This document shows, in pieces, positions 28,039 through 46,753 of a stretch of 64,000 nt of DNA. The notes under the pieces are model-generated. The model was not told where the DNA came from. It made no database searches and worked only from the letters and a program-made list of their open reading frames with translations. The stretch is from an uncultured Alphaproteobacteria bacterium (GTDB lineage: Bacteria; Pseudomonadota; Alphaproteobacteria; Rhizobiales; Xanthobacteraceae): the NCBI GenBank assembly GCA_963789455.1, contig CAWBLD010000013.1, forward strand, positions 65,559 to 129,558, in the 5' to 3' direction. The position numbers and the translations under genes were made by a program. Numbering within the stretch: position 1 is the stretch's first letter; each line of letters opens with the position of its first letter.

Positions 28039-28754
28039 TCAGCTGTTGTCGCGGCGGAAGGCGCCGGTGTGGCGGTCGAAGATGAAACGCTCGACCAGGG
28101 AATTGTCCTTGGTGACCACATCGGCCGTGATCGAGTCGGCGTCATTCTCTTTCACTTCGCCGACTTTGAGCCGCGGATTGCCGCGCCAAGTAAGCCAGCG
28201 TTCCATGCGGGCTTTCACATCGTCGGTGGTGAGATTGAGGGTCTGGCTGTTCTGATTGCCCTGGGCGCTCTGATTGCCCTGGGCGTTCTCATTGCCCTGG
28301 ACGTTCTGATCGTTCTGAGCGTCGCCCCTGCGGTCATAGCCGGGGCCGTAGCCGCCCATCATGCCGGGACCATAACCGCCACCCCAGCCGCGCATGTGGT
28401 AGCCGCGGCCGTAACCGCCCATCATGCCGGGACCGTAGCCGCCGCGCCAACCGCGCATGTGATAGCCCGGGCCGTAGCCTGGGCCATAGCCTTGTCCCTG
28501 CCTGTCGGCGGGGCCGGACTCGTTGTTTTGCGCGAAGGCCGGGCAATTCCACTGACCGCCGCCGGGTCCGCCGCCCCAGCCGCGCATGTGGAACCGGGGC
28601 CGTAACCGCCCATCATGCCCGGGCCGTAGCCGCCGCCCATCATGCCGGGGCCGTAGCCGCCGCCATCCTGAGCGGAGGCGGTCAGGCTGTAAGCCCCGAC
28701 CCCGGCCGCGAGCGCGGCCGCAAGGCCGAGACCGATCAAGCTTCGTGCACGCAT
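28039..28754 (-). CDS. Secreted GYGPGMMG/HMRGW-repeat protein with a possible PepSY-like C-terminal domain (1-nt deletion near 28592)
   Basis: ORF 28422-28754 gives the signal peptide and first repeats; ORF 28039-28587 continues the same repeats. AGGAG SD. Confidence 0.8.
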
Positions 28755-28828
28755 TTTAGTTCTCCTGTGTGTTTAGTCGATCTGGAATTCGTTGAGGGGA
28801 GCCGCCGCGCTTCCGCGCTACCAGCCCA

Positions 28829-29127
28829 TCACCTGCGGCCGTAACCTCGGCCGTAGCCGGGGCAATATTCGCCGTCCCAGCCGCGCCTGGCGTAGCCGCG
28901 GCCGTAGCCACGCATGTGCCGATAGCCGGGGCCGTAGCCGCGCATCCGGCCATAGCCCGGCCCGCGACCATAACCGGGCCGCGGCCGTAACCCGGTCCGT
29001 AGCCATCCATCATGCGCGGGCCGTAACCCGGGCCGTCTTGGGCCGAGGCGGTCGAGCTGTAGGTCCCGACCCCGGCCGCCAGCGCGGCCGCAATACCGAG
29101 GGCGATCAAAATATTTCGTGTCGTCAT
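28829..29127 (-). CDS. Short secreted Gly/Tyr/Arg-repeat paralog (1-nt deletion near 28976)
   Basis: Signal peptide nearly identical to the neighbour. The corrected frame reads GYGRGPGYGRMRGYGPGYRHMRGY...YCPGYGRGYGRR*. Confidence 0.72.
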
Positions 29128-29218
29128 TGGCCTGCTCCTATTGCTTGCAACGGTTTCTGCCGTCGCCCACGTGCAATAGAAGCCCTGCCTGTCACTCAAG
29201 TTTGTCGGCCGCGCACGA

Positions 29219-29269
29219 TTTTGTGACCAAATGTGTCAGAGCGCCCGGCAGCGAGATTTGGTTACAAAA
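29219..29269. promoter_or_regulatory. Candidate response-regulator operator, copy 1
   Basis: TTTTGTGACCAAATGTGTCAGAG...CCGGCAG...ATTTGGTTACAAAA. Matches 31080-31127. Confidence 0.7.
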
Positions 29270-29357
29270 AAGCTTCCTCGCGATCGCGGCCCATGGGACG
29301 GCAAGCGCCGGCGGGCGGGGCCGGCCGGCGCTCGCAGTCTCGCATCCACAACGCCGG

Positions 29358-29807
29358 TCAAGGCCGCAGATAAACGTAGCCGTCGCCCTGCAATTGCGCG
29401 ATGCGCACCACACCGCCCTGATCGACCTTGACGAAGCCCGGCAACAGACCCTTCTCGTCGACCTTCTGCGCCTTCATGGTGTTGGCGCAGGCGTCGAGCG
29501 AGACCCCCTCTTCCTTGAGGTTGCCGACGGTCTTAGCCACCGCCGGCTCCGCCAGCGCCGCGTGAAAGGCCTTGAGCGCGGGCCCATGCACCACCAGCAC
29601 GATCTCCACGTATTCGGGCCCGCCGACGCCGGCGATGTGGTTCTGGATGTTGGAAAGCACGAAGGGCACCTTTTCGGCGTCGGACAGGTGGTAAACCACC
29701 TTCTGCTTGTTCTTGGGCGTGGCCGCCAAAGCTGTTCCGCCGCCGGCCGCCGCAGCGGCCAGACCCGTCATCGCCAATACCGATTTGAAAAAACTACGCC
29801 GCTCCAT
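29358..29807 (-). CDS. Tat-exported DsrE-family protein
   Basis: Twin-arginine 'ERRSFFK', 'KVVYHLS', 'VVHGPAL', 'ACANTM' and 'LQGDGYVYLRP'. Confidence 0.88.
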   Translation of the reverse strand: MERRSFFKSVLAMTGLAAAAAGGGTALAATPKNKQKVVYHLSDAEKVPFVLSNIQNHIAGVGGPEYVEIVLVVHGPALKAFHAALAEPAVAKTVGNLKEEGVSLDACANTMKAQKVDEKGLLPGFVKVDQGGVVRIAQLQGDGYVYLRP

Positions 29808-29849
29808 TGTCGATCTCCTGCATGTTCATGATGTGTGTGATCGGGCTTT

Positions 29850-30391
29850 TCAGACGCCCACTTCCGCGAAGCGGTGGATGCGCCCGTTGCGCGTCAAAGC
29901 CGACGATGCGGTAGATGCCGGGAGTTCCGTCCATGCCCGGCGCTCCATCGGGCATGCCGGGCAAGGCAATGCCTTTCAAATCGGGCCGCTCGGCCAGCAG
30001 TTTCGCGACCGCGGCTTCCGGCACGTGCCCTTCAACCAGGTAACCATCGACCTTCGCCGTGTGGCACGAGTAAAGGGCCTCCGGCACGCCAAGCTTCGCC
30101 TTGATCGGATCCGGATCGGCGACGAGATTGACGGCGACCTGGTAGCCTTTGCCGCGCATGTAATCGACCCAGCCGCCGCAGCAGCCGCAGGTGGGCGATT
30201 TCCATACCGTGATCGCGCCGGCCTTGGCCGGCTGCGGCCGATCCAAGAACGTTCCAGGCGAATACGCCACCGCTGCCGATAGCCACCGAGCCGAGCAGCA
30301 GCGCGCGCCGCGATAGGCCCGGCTTGCGGGCAGCCGTCATTCCGGCTGCCAACCGATCTTCAGCTTTTGAACGATTTGCATTCTTTGCCAT
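29850..30391 (-). CDS. Tat-exported DUF411 (CopG/CutG-like) metal-binding protein (two +1 frameshifts near 30235 and 29890)
   Basis: 'SRRALLLG' signal, 'KSPTCGCCGGW', 'SCHTA', 'EGHVP' and 'PGMP'. Confidence 0.88.
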
Positions 30392-30582
30392 TGTCTTTCC
30401 TCTTCATCGCGCCGCTGCGCCGAATGCGGCCAAGCGCCACGCGGGTTGAACCAAACTATGCGAAAGGTTTTGCTCGACTGAGCCGGTCATGGCAGCGCGG
30501 CCATGCAGCGGCGGCACGCGGATGGCGAGTGGCCATCCTGCGGCATCAAGCAGTGGCGGCGGCGTTCGACACGCCGTCGCGA

Positions 30583-30967
30583 TCACACGCGCGCGATGGG
30601 AGGGGAGAGTTCGGGCTTGGGGGTTTGCCCGTGCAAGGTGGCCTCAACGGCCACCAAATGAATCTGCGGCCAGACTTTGGCGGACCACAAAGGCGCGGCC
30701 GGCATGCGCCAGAACTTGCACCGCCGCGCAGCTTTTGACGCAATTGGCGCTATTCGCCTTGCCCGAATCGTGTTTCGGCGCGGCCGTCTCGTTGACGGCA
30801 ATCTTGGCCGTCACGTGGGCCGCGGCCGCGTGTTCCACCGCAGCGGCGTTCGTCCCGCCGCAGCCCTCCGTGGACGCCGGCAAGCTTTGCGCCCACGGGC
30901 GTCCCGCAAAGGACATCACCATGAGAGCGATCAGCAGGCATTTGAACGGTGCGGCGCACAAGCGCAT
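30583..30967 (-). CDS. CutF/DUF2946-like leader peptide, ~127 aa once rebuilt (+1 frameshift near 30706)
   Basis: Signal peptide, His-containing linker and CVKSC. The adjacent frame supplies 'LHGQTPKPELSPPIARV*'. Confidence 0.65.
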
Positions 30968-31034
30968 TCGCGCACAATCCCCCGGTCACCGGTCCGTAAC
31001 GACGGCCACGCTAGTCGTTCGGATGGGTCTGAAT

Positions 31035-31048
31035 TTGACCTGCGTCAA
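31035..31048. promoter_or_regulatory. FixK/FNR-type box
   Basis: Perfect palindrome TTGAC-CTGC-GTCAA, ~70 bp upstream of ATG 30967. Confidence 0.65.
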
Positions 31049-31079
31049 TAGCGCGGAGGCGGCTTGCCAACCGGCTCTG

Positions 31080-31127
31080 TTTTGTAACCAATTGTGTCAG
31101 AGGGTCTATCCGGCAGATATTGTTACA
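31080..31127. promoter_or_regulatory. Candidate response-regulator operator, copy 2
   Basis: TTTTGTAACCAATTGTGTCAGAG...CCGGCAG.ATATTGTTACA. Confidence 0.7.
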
Positions 31128-31170
31128 TCTTTTTTGCCAAAACCGGCCCGGCCCGAACTAGATTTAGCGT

Positions 31171-31890
31171 ATGAATGCTGGCCCGCACATCCTGATCGTC
31201 GACGACCATCGCGAGATCCGCGACCTGGTGTCGCGCGCGCTCGCCAAGGACGGCTTTCGCGTCAGCACCGCCGGTGACGGCAAGGCCATGCGCAAGGTGC
31301 TGGCCGACGCCCGCATCGATCTCATCCTGCTCGACCTGATGTTGCCGGACGAGGACGGCCTGTCGCTGTGCCGGTCGCTGCGCGCCGACAGCGACATTCC
31401 GATCATCATGCTCACGGCCAAAGGCGACGAGGTCGACCGCGTGATCGGGCTGGAAATGGGCGCCGACGATTATCTGCCCAAGCCGTTCGGCAGCCGCGAG
31501 CTCATTGCGCGCATTCGCGCCGTGCTGCGGCGTAATCGCGCGCGCGAGCCCGCGGCCAAGCAGGACAAGCCCAAGCGCTACCGGTTCGAGCGCTGGGCCT
31601 TCGACGTCGACCGCCGCGAAATCATCGGCGATGACGGCGTCGCGGTACCGTTGAGCACCGGCGAATTCGATCTGCTGCTGGCGCTGGTCGAGCATCCACA
31701 GCGCACCTTGAGCCGCGACCAGTTGCTCGATCTCGCGCGCCACCGCGCGGCCAACACCTTCGACCGCAGCATGGACACGCAAGTGAGCCGCCTGCGCAAA
31801 AAGATCGAGCGCGACCCGGGCGATCCGAAACTCATCAAGACCGTCTGGGGCGGCGGCTACATCTTCACCCCCGATGTGAGCCGGGAATGA
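31171..31890 (+). CDS. OmpR-family response regulator
   Basis: Receiver 'LLDLMLP', 'GADDYLPKPF' and wHTH 'IKTVWGGGY'. No SD, and TAGATT lies 6 nt upstream, so possibly leaderless. Confidence 0.95.
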   Translation: MNAGPHILIVDDHREIRDLVSRALAKDGFRVSTAGDGKAMRKVLADARIDLILLDLMLPDEDGLSLCRSLRADSDIPIIMLTAKGDEVDRVIGLEMGADDYLPKPFGSRELIARIRAVLRRNRAREPAAKQDKPKRYRFERWAFDVDRREIIGDDGVAVPLSTGEFDLLLALVEHPQRTLSRDQLLDLARHRAANTFDRSMDTQVSRLRKKIERDPGDPKLIKTVWGGGYIFTPDVSRE

Positions 31891-33338
31891 CCCGCTTTCT
31901 CCCCAAAAGCTTCCTGCCCAAGAGCCTGTTCGGCCAGACGCTGCTGATCCTGCTGTTCGGGCTGGTGATCTCGCATGCGATCGGCGCCTGGATCTATGCC
32001 GGCGCGCGCGAGCAGGCGGTGCGTGCGATCGGCGGCTTCGCGGCGGCCCAGCGCGTCGCCAACCTCTCGCGGCTGGTGGAGGAAGCGCCGGCCGATTGGC
32101 GCCCGCGCATCGTGGCGGCGCTGAGCGATCCCACCTTCCGCGTCGCGCTTATGGCCCAGCCGCCCGAGCAATTGCCGGCCGACGCCGACGGCGCCGCCAA
32201 GGCGATCGAGGAATACGTGCTGGAGCAGCTTCCCGAAGGGCCCGATCGCCAAGTGCGAGCCGCCGTTCTGGAGCCGACCGATCAGCCGCCCGGCGCGCTG
32301 TTCGGCGCGCCGTTCGGCCGCCGGCCGTTCCAGGGACCGATGGGCGATCCGAATAGAATGGGCATGATGATGATGCACGGCATGATGGCGCCGAATTTTG
32401 GCGCAGGGCGCGGCCTGCAGGTGGCGGTCAGGCTGAGCGACGGCCAATGGCTGTCGTTTGCCACCACGCTGCCGCAGGGCGCGCCTTCCGTGTCGTGGCA
32501 ATTCATCATCTCGATGGCGTTGATGGGTTTGATCGTGCTCGTGGTCTCGATCTGGGCGGTGCGGCGCGTCACCGCCCCGCTGGGCATGCTGTCGGCCGCC
32601 GCCGACCGTCTCGGCCGCGATGTCGGGGCCGAGCCGCTCGCCGAGGCCGGCACCATCGAAATGCAGCGCGCCGCACGCGCTTTTAATCGCATGCAGGAGC
32701 GGCTGCGCCGGATGGTCGAAAGCCGCACCCAGATGCTGGCGGCGCTGTCGCACGACCTGCGCACGCCGCTGACACTGTTGCGCCTGCGCGCGGAGGTAGT
32801 CGCCGACAGCGAGGAGCGCGACAAGATGCTGGCGACAATCGGCGAGATGGATGAGATGATCGGGACGACATTGGCTTTCGCGCGCGACGAAGTGCGCGCC
32901 GAGCCGCGCCGGCGCGTCGATATCGCCGCGCTGCTCGCCAGCATCGTGGACGACATGGCCGACGCCGGACTGCCGGTGACCATGGCGCCGGCGGCGCCGC
33001 ATATCCATGACTGCCAGCCGAATGCATTGAAGCGCGCGCTCACCAACCTGCTCGACAACGCGGTGAAATACGGCAAGCGCGCGCAAGTCGCGATCGCCAC
33101 CGCGGGCAAAGCGATCGAAATCACCATTGACGACGAGGGACCGGGAATTCCCGACGCGGAGTTGCCGAAAGTGTTCCAGCCGTTCTACCGGGTCGAGGAT
33201 TCGCGCAGCCGCGACACCGGCGGGACTGGCTTAGGCCTTGCGATCGCGCAATCCATCGTGCAGGCCCATGGCGGCGAACTCACCCTCGCCAACCGGCCGG
33301 GCGGCGGCTTGCGCGCCTCAATCAAGCTGCCGGTCTAG
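31887..33338 (+). CDS. Sensor histidine kinase (2 TM, HAMP) with a Met/His-rich periplasmic loop
   Basis: H-box SHDLRTPL, N-box NLLDNAVKY, DEGPGI and GTGLGL. Confidence 0.95.
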   Translation: MTRFLPKSFLPKSLFGQTLLILLFGLVISHAIGAWIYAGAREQAVRAIGGFAAAQRVANLSRLVEEAPADWRPRIVAALSDPTFRVALMAQPPEQLPADADGAAKAIEEYVLEQLPEGPDRQVRAAVLEPTDQPPGALFGAPFGRRPFQGPMGDPNRMGMMMMHGMMAPNFGAGRGLQVAVRLSDGQWLSFATTLPQGAPSVSWQFIISMALMGLIVLVVSIWAVRRVTAPLGMLSAAADRLGRDVGAEPLAEAGTIEMQRAARAFNRMQERLRRMVESRTQMLAALSHDLRTPLTLLRLRAEVVADSEERDKMLATIGEMDEMIGTTLAFARDEVRAEPRRRVDIAALLASIVDDMADAGLPVTMAPAAPHIHDCQPNALKRALTNLLDNAVKYGKRAQVAIATAGKAIEITIDDEGPGIPDAELPKVFQPFYRVEDSRSRDTGGTGLGLAIAQSIVQAHGGELTLANRPGGGLRASIKLPV

Positions 33339-44363: not shown

Positions 44364-44847
44364 ATGCCGGTACCGCAAATTCGTTTCAGCCTGCGCGGCC
44401 GATGCACCGGCCGCCTGCGAAGTGCTGCGGCGCTCGATTATCGAATTGTGCGAGGCCGATCACGGCAACGATCCGCAATTCCTTAGCCGCTGGCTCGCCA
44501 ACAAGACGCCGGAGAATGTCGCGGCCTGGATCGCCGATGCCGGAAATTTCGTTTATGTCGCGGTCGATGGCGGCAGAATTGCCGGCGTCGCCGCCATGAC
44601 CCGCGCCGGCCTGGTCACATTAAATTACGTGTCGCCGGACGCCCGCTTCAGAGGCGTCAGCAAGGCGCTGTTGGCGGAGCTTGAACGCAAGGCCGCCGAA
44701 CTCGGCCTCGCCCAATGCAGCCTCGAGAGCACAAAAACGGCGCGGCGTTTCTACGAGGCGGCCGGCTACCGCGAGCAAGACGGCGTGGCCGGCGGTTGCG
44801 GCGGCGATGCGGGAAATTGCCGCCCGATGGTGAAAGCTATCGCCTGA
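44364..44847 (+). CDS. GNAT acetyltransferase (+1 frameshift near 44385)
   Basis: The corrected N-terminus [25 protein letters not shown] joins '[16 protein letters not shown]...RRFYEAAGY'. Confidence 0.85.
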
Positions 44848-44857
44848 CCGGCGCCGG

Positions 44858-45632
44858 TTACAGCCCGCTGAACCAGTTGTAGCCCTGGTTTTCCCAATAG
44901 CCGCCGTGGTCGGTGTTGGTGCACTTCCATCGCCACCACGTATTTCGGCTGCTTGAAGCCGAGCTTGGTGGGCATGCGGATCTTCATCGGGAAGCCGTAG
45001 GCGCGCGGCAACAGCTTGTGGTCGAACTTGAACGACATCTGCGTCTGCGGATGCAGCGCGGTCGGCATGTCGATGGTGTTGGTGTAGCCCTCGGCGCATT
45101 TGAACCAGATGTATTTGGCGCGCGTGTCGGCGCCGATGCGCTTGAGGAAATCGGACAACACGGCGCCCTGCCAGGAGCCGATGGCGCTCCAGCCCTCGAC
45201 GCAGACATGGCGGGTGATCTGCGACACCTCGGGCAGCGCGTGCAGCTCGTCGAGCGTCCACGGTTTCTTGTTGTCGACCAGGCCGGCAATCTCAAGCTTG
45301 TAGCTGGCGGGATCGACCACCGGCGCCTCGTCCTCGTTGTAATAGGCGTTGAACGGGAACGGCCGCTTGATCGCGCTTTCGGGGAAGGTCGGCGCCAGCT
45401 TGGTCGGACTGAACAGCGCGGCCTGCGCGCCGTCGTTGAAGGCGGAAATCTTGCGCAGCACGCCTTCGGCGGTGTCGCCATCGATGATGTCGCAGCCGGT
45501 GAGCAGGGCGAGCGCACCCAGGCTCGCCGCCCCGCGCAGGAAGCCGCGGCGCGCCGGATCGGGCATCAGCTTGGCGGCATCCTTGATCAGCAGCCTGGGA
45601 TCGACGCCGGGAATGATTTTGCGCTGGCGCAT
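44858..45632 (-). CDS. Periplasmic molybdopterin oxidoreductase, MsrP/YedY-like (+1 frameshift near 44921)
   Basis: Tat 'RRGFLRG', 'HVCVEGWS' and 'KLGFKQPK'. The corrected tail is GGYWENQGYNWFSGL*. Confidence 0.9.
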
Positions 45633-45642
45633 CTTGTTGATC

Positions 45643-46260
45643 CTATTTCCCCGCGACCATGGCGCGCAGGCTCTTCGGCACCAAGAGCGCCAGCGCCACA
45701 TGCACGACCAGGAAGCCGACGATCGCGCTCATGGCGGCGAAATGCACGTAGCGGGCAAAATCATAGCCGCCGAACAGCGCGGTCAATTCCTGGAACTGCA
45801 CCGGCTTCCAGATCGACAGCCCCGACAGCACGATCACAATGCCGGTGAGGATCACGCCGGCATAAAGCAGCTTCTGCACCGCGTTGTAGTGCGTTAGATC
45901 GTCATGCGCGAGCTGGAAGCTGAGCGCGGCCCTGGCGTCGGCCAGCACCTCGGACGGATAGATCGGCAACAGCTTGCGGCGAAAGCGGCCGCTGGCGATC
46001 CCGAGCGTCACATAGACGACGCCGTTGATCACCAGCACCCACATCGCGGCGAAATGCCAGAGCAGCGCGCCGCCGAGCCATTGGCCGAGCGTGATGTGTT
46101 TGGAAAATTCGAAATCGAACAGCGGCGAGGCGTTGTAGATTTGCCAGCCGGAGCCGATCATGACCAGGATCGCGAGCGCATTGATCCAATGGCACACGCG
46201 TACCCAGCCGGGGTGGATGGCCGCGTCGGCGGGCATGGTGGCGATCGTTTCAGCGGTCAT
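45643..46260 (-). CDS. Cytochrome b/b6-domain membrane subunit
   Basis: 'VRVCHWIN', 'WHFAAMW', 'YNAVQK', 'WKPVQF' and 'RYVHF'. Confidence 0.92.
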   Translation of the reverse strand: MTAETIATMPADAAIHPGWVRVCHWINALAILVMIGSGWQIYNASPLFDFEFSKHITLGQWLGGALLWHFAAMWVLVINGVVYVTLGIASGRFRRKLLPIYPSEVLADARAALSFQLAHDDLTHYNAVQKLLYAGVILTGIVIVLSGLSIWKPVQFQELTALFGGYDFARYVHFAAMSAIVGFLVVHVALALLVPKSLRAMVAGK

Positions 46261-46314
46261 GGCAAGCCTGCCCGTCATTCTAACCAGTATAGGCCCGCAA
46301 TGAATATACGGCGC

Positions 46315-46355: not shown

Positions 46356-46598
46356 TTATTTCTTCATGCCGTCTTTGGACATGTCGTCCTTGCCCATGGT
46401 GTCCTTCTTCATCGTGTCCTTGGACATGCTGTCCTTGGACATGTCGTCCTTGCCCATGGTGTCCTTTTTCATCGTGTCCTTGGACATGCTGTCCTTGCTC
46501 ATGGTGTCCTTCTTCATGTCGTCGGCGAAAGCCGGCGCCATGGCAAGCCCGCCAGCGATGGCGGCGGCCAGCACGGCCGAAAACAATTTCTTTTTCAT
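46356..46598 (-). CDS. Pentapeptide MXKDX repeat protein (Met-rich, secreted)
   Basis: Signal peptide ending AFA, then tandem M-x-K-D-x. GGAGG SD. Confidence 0.92.
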   Translation of the reverse strand: MKKKLFSAVLAAAIAGGLAMAPAFADDMKKDTMSKDSMSKDTMKKDTMGKDDMSKDSMSKDTMKKDTMGKDDMSKDGMKK

Positions 46599-46753
46599 TT
46601 CGTATCCTCCTGAGGAATGAACTTGGCAATCCATCCGCTAACACAGGGCTTAAACACGTCCTCATCAGTTTCCCGTTGCTCAAACCTAGCGTTTGGCTCA
46701 CGGTTTTGTGAGAATGCCTAAGCCGGGCCGGATCAGATGAAGGAGCGCTAGCG

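Follow-up and report, generated by a model that had tools for sequence, protein, structure and literature searches.

Could a bacterial locus that carries no efflux pump of its own form a self-contained system against metal stress in the periplasm? This question is raised by a stretch of 64,000 nucleotides from an uncultured alphaproteobacterium of the Xanthobacteraceae (GenBank assembly GCA_963789455.1, contig CAWBLD010000013.1, positions 65,559 to 129,558), which is called the window below and comes from an assembly of 17 contigs and 4.28 Mb that is 88% complete. Positions 28039-33338 of the window hold seven genes: two on the plus strand, encoding a response regulator and a sensor kinase, and five divergent genes on the minus strand, encoding exported proteins, namely a CutF-like leader, a DUF411 protein, a DsrE-like protein and two Gly- and Met-rich proteins, here GY1 and GY2. 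An earlier interpretation made from the letters of the window (the sequence-only reading) took them for one self-contained, pump-less module that sequesters copper or silver. The divergent arrangement that it described stands, with all seven genes in place. However, judged from its distribution among related genomes, the locus is a composite of a conserved core and an inserted accessory cassette, and it is reasonably likely that these two layers were assembled into an envelope copper-stress regulon. The parts are of known kinds, while their combination, like two of the protein families, is undescribed.

Then, is the five-gene set conserved as a unit? Relatives of GY2 were collected in 39 species-representative genomes, and the seven proteins of the locus were mapped onto these 39 loci. 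The reference for reading frames was G005 (locus L015), a genome of the same genus, with which the whole window is syntenic in colinear blocks of 75-91% DNA identity. About 28 of the 39 loci contain the core, in which the kinase and regulator genes diverge from GY2 and GY1 frequently lies between them; the regulator is 86-95% identical across about 28 related loci. The hosts of GY2 relatives that bear names are Pseudolabrys, Undibacter, Rhodoplanes or Rhodoblastus. The complete cassette of leader, DUF411 and DsrE-like genes, located between the regulator and GY1, occurs only in the window, G005, L037, L040 and L041; it is partial in L016 and L030, and absent from L034, the closest relative of the window by kinase identity (92-96%). 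Because the three-gene cassette is patchy and missing from L034, the five effectors are better regarded as a core plus an insertion. The proposal of one self-contained five-gene system finds no support in this form, given this split, the two transcription units and the cassette-free L034. As a conserved neighbourhood the core holds, whereas the full five-gene set is confined to a few closely related species.

The 3' boundary of the cassette is a 12-bp GC hairpin, none of whose 12 pairs is broken in the six sequences folded together with RNAalifold. It was considered as a canonical intrinsic terminator for the DsrE-like gene and rejected, since the U-tract is absent. No DUF411 gene lies within about 1.5 kb of the DsrE-like homologues in 31 other loci (0/31), and a literature search found no paper combining 'DUF411' and 'DsrE'. 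In G005 a DUF5672 gene (L002:531-1379, plus strand) sits between GY2 and a conserved secreted protein of 111 amino acids, which is not the case in the window. The features of the locus are given below, where export was judged by eye from signal-peptide and twin-arginine translocation (Tat) motifs, with no predictor used.

31887-33338, plus strand: sensor histidine kinase, EnvZ/CpxA-like, with two transmembrane segments (Pfam HAMP, HisKA, HATPase_c)
31171-31890, plus strand: OmpR-family response regulator (Response_reg and Trans_reg_C)
31081-31099, minus strand: operator copy 1 (direct repeat TGACACA-N3-GGTTACA)
31035-31048: FixK/FNR-type box TTGAC-N4-GTCAA, upstream of the leader gene
30583-30967, minus strand: CutF-like leader protein (general secretory (Sec) signal, GCGG, CVKSC, C-terminal PKPELSPPIARV)
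30392-30582, minus strand: structured spacer of 191 nucleotides from the leader to DUF411 (RNAalifold, RNAfold)
29850-30391, minus strand: Tat-exported DUF411 protein, homologue of CopG/CutG (PF04214; PDB 6WIS)
29358-29807, minus strand: Tat-exported DsrE-fold protein, frame intact (PF02635; RRSFFK Tat motif)
29301-29335, minus strand: 12-bp GC hairpin closing the cassette at its 3' edge (RNAalifold, six loci)
29220-29238, minus strand: operator copy 2, 5' of the GY1 gene
29189-29206, minus strand: conserved box GACAAACTTGAGTGACAG, 5' of the GY1 gene
28818-29127, minus strand: GY1, secreted low-complexity protein of about 100-110 amino acids (composition, signal motif)
28039-28754, minus strand: GY2, with signal peptide, GYGPGMMGG/GYHMRGW repeats, a conserved Cys in WNCPAF and a C-terminal domain of 65 amino acids

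How could two such layers come under common control? The 19-bp operator TGACACAnTTGGTnACAAA occurs at two sites in the window, where 0.02 would be expected by chance, and no further copy is found elsewhere in the 4.28-Mb assembly. One copy lies about 72 nucleotides from the regulator start, a position conserved in about 30 loci, and distant orthologues carry a variant, TGACACACTTTGTCACAAA, at the same place. It is because this variant in other genera exposes the repeat that a direct repeat TG(A/T)CACA with 10-bp spacing can be recognised; direct repeats with such spacing are typical for OmpR/PhoB-type regulators. The EnvZ/OmpR-like kinase and regulator would act on this operator, which lies between their own operon and the divergent genes. 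As shown by the alignment with the single-copy locus L034, the duplicated block in the cassette-bearing genomes is about 50 bp long and runs from TTGTAAC through the operator. The leader-CopG-DsrE-like cassette appears to have been inserted between the regulator and GY1, copying these 50 bp or so of operator sequence.

The two copies are followed by different elements. The box GACAAACTTGAGTGACAG, conserved in about 30 loci, lies downstream of the GY-proximal operator and is itself followed by a -10-like element, CTAAT/CTATT; it probably covers the -35 region of the GY gene promoter. Downstream of the regulator-proximal copy its place is taken by the FixK/FNR box, which would replace the -35-region box in the promoter of the cassette. 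In the window this box, TTGACGCAGGTCAA, is the sole match to TTGAY-N4-RTCAA in 64 kb (0.07 expected). It is kept with no more than one mismatch in all six cassette loci and is perfect in G005 (TTGATGCAGATCAA), and at least eight regulators of the CRP/FNR family are encoded in the genome. The duplicated operator and the FixK/FNR box are thus real features of the places where the sequence-only reading put them, and its suggestion of three layers of control gains comparative support from the operator, from the box and from a leader with CutF features.

Do both operator copies serve one regulon, then? The regulator-proximal copy might be a relic of the insertion or serve only the autoregulation of the regulator, in which case the cassette would depend on the FixK/FNR box and the leader alone, and the five genes would not form one regulon. 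This copy does stand 72 nucleotides from the regulator gene, as in the cassette-free loci. With the FixK box placed at -41.5, moreover, the operator falls about 90 nucleotides upstream of the inferred start, which is far for direct activation. However, sites as far away as about -100 are known to serve OmpR-type regulators, and the full direct repeat is retained by both copies in the window, G005 and L041, and in L037 and L040 with one mismatch. This alternative is quite improbable.

What kind of proteins did the cassette bring under the operator? The leader proteins are 127-141 amino acids long (less than 170), begin with a Sec-type signal and share the conserved stretch LKWLLIGLMVVSFAGRPWAQ. 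Among 22 sequences, the invariant positions are C34, C76, C80, P118, E119, L120, P122, P123 and I124. They include both Cys residues of the CxxxC motif (CVKSC, or CIKNC in L041) and the residues P, E, L, P, P and I of the C-terminus PKPELSPPIA. CutF-like leaders have been described as proteins of less than 170 amino acids with a Sec signal, a CxxxC motif and a Pro-rich C-terminus, encoded upstream of a Tat-exported copper protein (PMC9973294; bioRxiv 10.1101/2025.02.05.636593), and the C-terminal motif of CutF in Rhodobacter capsulatus is PEPEGPPPRL (bioRxiv 10.1101/2025.02.05.636593). Here the leader gene is located directly 5' of the Tat-exported DUF411 gene. The leader is therefore CutF-like by its features and not by a Pfam model. 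Its subfamily is small, with 49 clusters, all of them unnamed.

The leader may also form part of an RNA switch. In the window, G005 and L016, a long-range helix is predicted in which CCUC of the Pro-Pro codons, together with CAUCGC, pairs with GCGAUG..GAGG at the DUF411 gene's ribosome-binding site, and the duplex energy amounts to -15.4 to -16.9 kcal/mol in four of the six loci. According to RNA folding, the ribosome-binding site has an unpaired probability of about 0, which reaches 0.4-0.7 once the stall site is held single-stranded. The first Pro codon of the stall site is CCT in all six loci, while CCT makes up 3.7% of the Pro codons of the genome. In four of the six loci, the Pro-Pro stall codons of the leader are thus predicted to pair with the copG ribosome-binding site, and the stalling of the nascent leader there, dependent on copper, would probably control the translation of copG.

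The closest described counterpart is the cutFOG operon of R. capsulatus. Both have a small Sec-exported CxxxC leader with a C-terminal PxPE..PP directly 5' of genes for Tat-exported copper proteins, both include a DUF411 protein (CutG in the operon), and in both the next gene's ribosome-binding site is predicted to be masked by RNA pairing. They differ in that the oxidase (CutO) is missing here, so that the leader directly precedes DUF411, and in that the predicted masking partner is the Pro-Pro codon pair instead of a local stem-loop. In addition, the locus here includes a DsrE-like gene, its transcription is provided with both a two-component operator and a FixK/FNR box, and the leader falls below the Pfam threshold for DUF2946.

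The second cassette protein is a homologue of CopG. The DUF411 protein matches PF04214 with 83.7 bits (cut-off 27), carries an SRRALLLG Tat motif in its N-terminal piece and is encoded by a single copy in the genome; its orthologue in G005 is intact, with 179 amino acids. It aligns to the solved structure of CopG from Pseudomonas aeruginosa (PDB 6WIS) with E = 2.9e-26, where CGCC (CxCC) falls on the CGCC of the structure's chain and the two sequences share the SCHT and MPxGSPGM stretches. The likeness is based on homology within the DUF411 fold family, and the neighbourhoods differ in that copA, copB or a pump is not adjacent here. Indeed, as the sequence-only reading claimed, the locus contains no pump, ATPase or multicopper oxidase. 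The P-type ATPases and resistance-nodulation-division (RND) pumps of the genome are encoded on other contigs only. A multicopper oxidase was not found anywhere in this genome, at 88% completeness, and is present elsewhere in the genome in four of the five other cassette genomes.

The DsrE-like protein matches PF02635 with 29.9 bits (cut-off 22.7) and PDB entries 2pd2 and 1l1s with E of about 1e-8, and resembles the uncharacterised DsrE-fold proteins ST0148 and MTH1491. One Cys is conserved, within DACANTM in the cassette orthologues and NACGNTM in a paralogue. Within the order, 31 of 301 genomes encode homologues. Among the open reading frames of the window around the locus, the sulfur-relay partners DsrF/H, TusA and Sox were not found. 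As a guess, the protein could be a thiol or persulfide carrier that acts on Cu(I). DsrE-like genes were also observed in other settings. A homologue with 48% identity in a Rokubacteria genome (L059:1838-5981) lies in a Sox-like cluster, beside a SoxA/TsdA-type cytochrome, a 5'-nucleotidase-family (SoxB-like) protein and a YeeE/YedE-type sulfur transporter. A second Tat-exported DsrE-like paralogue (L005:781-1864, about 70% DNA identity), present in several genomes of the same genus, adjoins an unannotated secreted protein of 202 amino acids, with no copper genes nearby.

The core effectors, GY1 and GY2, are of another kind. Their variable regions contain 34-35% Gly, 7-14% Tyr, 9-12% Pro, 7-11% Met and 2-4% His, and the GY1 orthologue in G005 has 34% Gly, 14% Tyr, 11% Met and 4% His. 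The C-terminal 65 residues of GY2 are highly conserved and match 1,448 clusters (50% identity, E <= 0.001), often behind GPGMM-type repeats. The AlphaFold2 model of this domain consists of one helix and four strands, with a predicted local distance difference test score above 90 at residues 151-210 and 82 for the last five residues. Among PDB structures it is matched best by the PepSY proteins YpmB (Z 6.3) and YpeB (Z 5.6), which is only suggestive; there is no Pfam hit, and these Z scores are below the level that would exclude a common arrangement as the cause. A Foldseek search of GY2 against the PDB gave no match at E <= 0.001, and a feature search of the ESM Atlas returned only unnamed clusters, below 0.9. 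A GY2 paralogue with the same C-terminal domain is encoded on contig C4 (300123-300794, plus strand), far from any two-component system or operator. Its neighbours, identified partly by eye as lytic-transglycosylase-like, apparent ribosome hibernation factor and apparent mechanosensitive channel genes, are uninformative.

GY1 and GY2, which are mostly disordered, would most likely serve as periplasmic buffers of Cu(I) or Ag(I), like the SilE and PcoE sponges. Like those of the SilRS, PcoRS and CusRS systems, they are secreted, disordered Met/His-rich proteins encoded beside a two-component system and probably controlled by it. The likeness is one of composition and context, however, as GY1 and GY2 have no sequence relationship to SilE/PcoE. 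Their composition is rich in Gly, Tyr and Pro, with GMMG and YHMRGW units, GY2 possesses a folded C-terminal domain, and the kinase here does not belong to the CusS family.

Which signal does the kinase perceive? Its periplasmic stretch is MGDPNRMGMMMMHGMM, within which a Gly/Met/His loop, GPMGG..GMMHGMMGP, is kept in 22 orthologues and resembles the GY repeats. The GY proteins may also feed back on the kinase, whose loop shares the GMM-H-GMMGP motif with them. The best NCBIfam matches are OmpR equivalog for the regulator (288 bits, cut-off 331) and, for the kinase, EnvZ (208 bits, cut-off 415) and CpxA (187 bits), the kinase matches being sub-threshold as well. Distant orthologues of the pair in other genera, with 55-62% kinase identity, have the same operator at the same position. 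In L106 (L106:173-2504) the orthologous system diverges from genes for a Met/Gly/His-rich LTXXQ (CpxP/Spy/ZraP) protein and, after it, a Tat-exported multicopper oxidase; in L107 (L107:134-2168) it diverges from a small Met/His-rich secreted protein, again followed by a Tat-exported multicopper oxidase; and in L108 it diverges from an LTXXQ protein. In L109 (G327:C18:94000-97360, minus strand), the divergent GY1-like and GY2-like genes are followed by a gene for an 82-aa SHOCT-domain membrane protein. Met-rich periplasmic proteins thus recur as partners of this sensor family, which in two cases also adjoins a multicopper oxidase, the hallmark copper-detoxifying enzyme.

Copper is accordingly the likeliest signal, because the leader matches CutF of Rhodobacter, the DUF411 protein matches a solved CopG, and the distant orthologues adjoin multicopper oxidases or LTXXQ Met-rich proteins. 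The copper or silver assignment of the sequence-only reading is thus strengthened by the oxidases beside orthologous two-component systems, with copper still reached by inference. The locus resembles the copRS-copABCD loci in having a two-component system divergent from periplasmic copper-handling genes and, in the L106 and L107 orthologues, an adjoining multicopper oxidase. It differs in that its regulator and kinase stay below the cut-offs of the heavy-metal families, and the oxidase, CopB, CopC and CopD are absent.

Alternatively, the system could sense oxidants or envelope damage, as HprSR-MsrPQ and CpxAR-CpxP do. The Met-rich loop and proteins would then be oxidation sensors, sacrificial scavengers or chaperone-like modulators, and the copper cassette would have joined secondarily. 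CpxAR-CpxP and ZraSR-ZraP are among the closest known systems. In these systems, too, a periplasmic accessory gene diverges from an envelope-stress two-component system, the kinase here resembles CpxA and EnvZ, closer to these than to CusS, and LTXXQ proteins occupy the GY2 position in distant orthologous loci, with their domains at the place of the GY2 C-terminal domain. ZraP also has a Gly/His/Met tail, and Met clusters are prone to oxidation. Furthermore, the core lacks any copper gene in most loci. GY1 and GY2 of the window show no Pfam hit for the LTXXQ domain that is present at the equivalent position in L106 and L108. The oxidant alternative is at odds with the multicopper oxidases that adjoin orthologous systems, with the recruitment of a CutF/CopG cassette under the same operator, and with the fact that no msrP or msrQ gene bears the operator; it is therefore improbable.

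A link to MsrP was also sought through a molybdopterin oxidoreductase encoded nearby and rejected, since the protein scores 62 bits against an MsrP cut-off of 207 and its gene has no operator. That part of the window contains a gene for a small secreted Met/Lys/Asp-repeat protein (DMKKDTMSKDSMSKDTM..., 46356-46634, minus strand), directly 5' of those for a cytochrome b-like membrane protein and the oxidoreductase (45643-46300 and 44766-45901, minus strand), the latter with two frame breaks.

Several observations weigh against reading the locus as an envelope copper-stress regulon. Neither the kinase (135 vs 292.6 bits) nor the regulator (139.6 vs 279.2 bits) reaches the heavy-metal families TIGR01386/01387. 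GY1 and GY2 have no match in Pfam or NCBIfam. The same is true of the leader, for which PF11162 (DUF2946) gives no hit at E <= 1 in either the window or G005, and only sub-threshold DUF2946 matches (best E = 0.012) are found in four of the 22 leader relatives. The spacer between leader and DUF411, 137-191 nucleotides across loci, is longer than most published CutF-type spacers (less than 100 nucleotides), a further difference from cutFOG. The long-range duplex is weak at -6.6 kcal/mol in L037 and at -10.9 kcal/mol in L040, and covariation does not support the predicted pairing. The DsrE-like family shows no linkage to copper elsewhere. Finally, six breaks relative to G005, in which all five minus-strand genes are intact, interrupt the frames of four of the five effectors in the window:

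about 30707: leader, one extra base
about 30237: DUF411, one extra base
about 29889: DUF411, one extra base
about 28985: GY1, frame break
about 28832: GY1, frame break
about 28590: GY2, one base missing

Are these breaks errors of assembly, or signs of decay? If the indels are real, the effector genes are truly inactivated and the module is decaying while its regulators persist. The breaks are in fact dense, six in about 2.9 kb against roughly one in every 5 kb of the remaining window (about tenfold); the kinase, regulator and DsrE-like genes are intact; and the cassette is accessory and patchy among relatives. However, indels of the same kind, single-base or short, affect genes for aconitase, an ABC ATPase, a MiaB/RimO-type radical-SAM enzyme, the molybdopterin oxidoreductase (twice), pterin-4a-carbinolamine dehydratase and an EamA-type transporter elsewhere in the window (about 6306, 8917, 15853, 22323, 26182, 42163, 44921, 45635 and 46863). 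RND pump genes on contigs C5 and C10 are split into 2-4 pieces, and the kinase and regulator genes are likewise split in several related assemblies, most of which share the same MFD sample prefix. The assembly is prone to frameshifts throughout. Each piece left by a break keeps an open frame of its own, with 80-94% identity to intact relatives, and P0001, an intact GY2 relative of 238 amino acids from a metagenome (94% identical), reads straight through the GY2 break. Because of the intact genes of G005 and of P0001, of the same type of break in housekeeping and pump genes, and of the open and conserved pieces, it is probable that the six indels are assembly errors, and decay of the module is somewhat unlikely. 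Programmed frameshifting was rejected as well, given that the breaks are of different kinds and lie in different contexts, that the relatives have unbroken frames and that housekeeping genes suffer too. No sequence motif shared by the indel sites was found. Frame breaks in such assemblies can mimic gene decay.

What, then, does the locus resemble as a whole? By analogy, it would act most like a merger of a cop/sil-type system with its Met-rich buffer, a CpxP/ZraP-type accessory protein and the leader switch of cutFOG, although its sequences place it in none of the CusRS, CpxP and SilE families. A bolder possibility, which we regard as speculative and unlikely, is an unrecognised class of periplasmic Cu(I) sensor. 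The kinase loop and its secreted disordered partners, from a family of at least 1,400 unannotated clusters, would share a binding motif and form a metal-dependent feedback pair, and the arrest codons of the leader (CCU CCC) would serve as an anti-Shine-Dalgarno sequence for a gene about 170 nucleotides downstream.

For the envelope copper-stress regulon favoured here, CutF-type control would be extended, since leader control would reach CopG without an oxidase. An unannotated family, that of secreted Gly/Met-rich proteins with a small folded C-terminal domain, gains a testable role. Finally, the core provides a candidate for a two-component system that would respond to copper without belonging to the CusS/CopS family, in common Xanthobacteraceae of soil (Pseudolabrys, Undibacter, Rhodoplanes).

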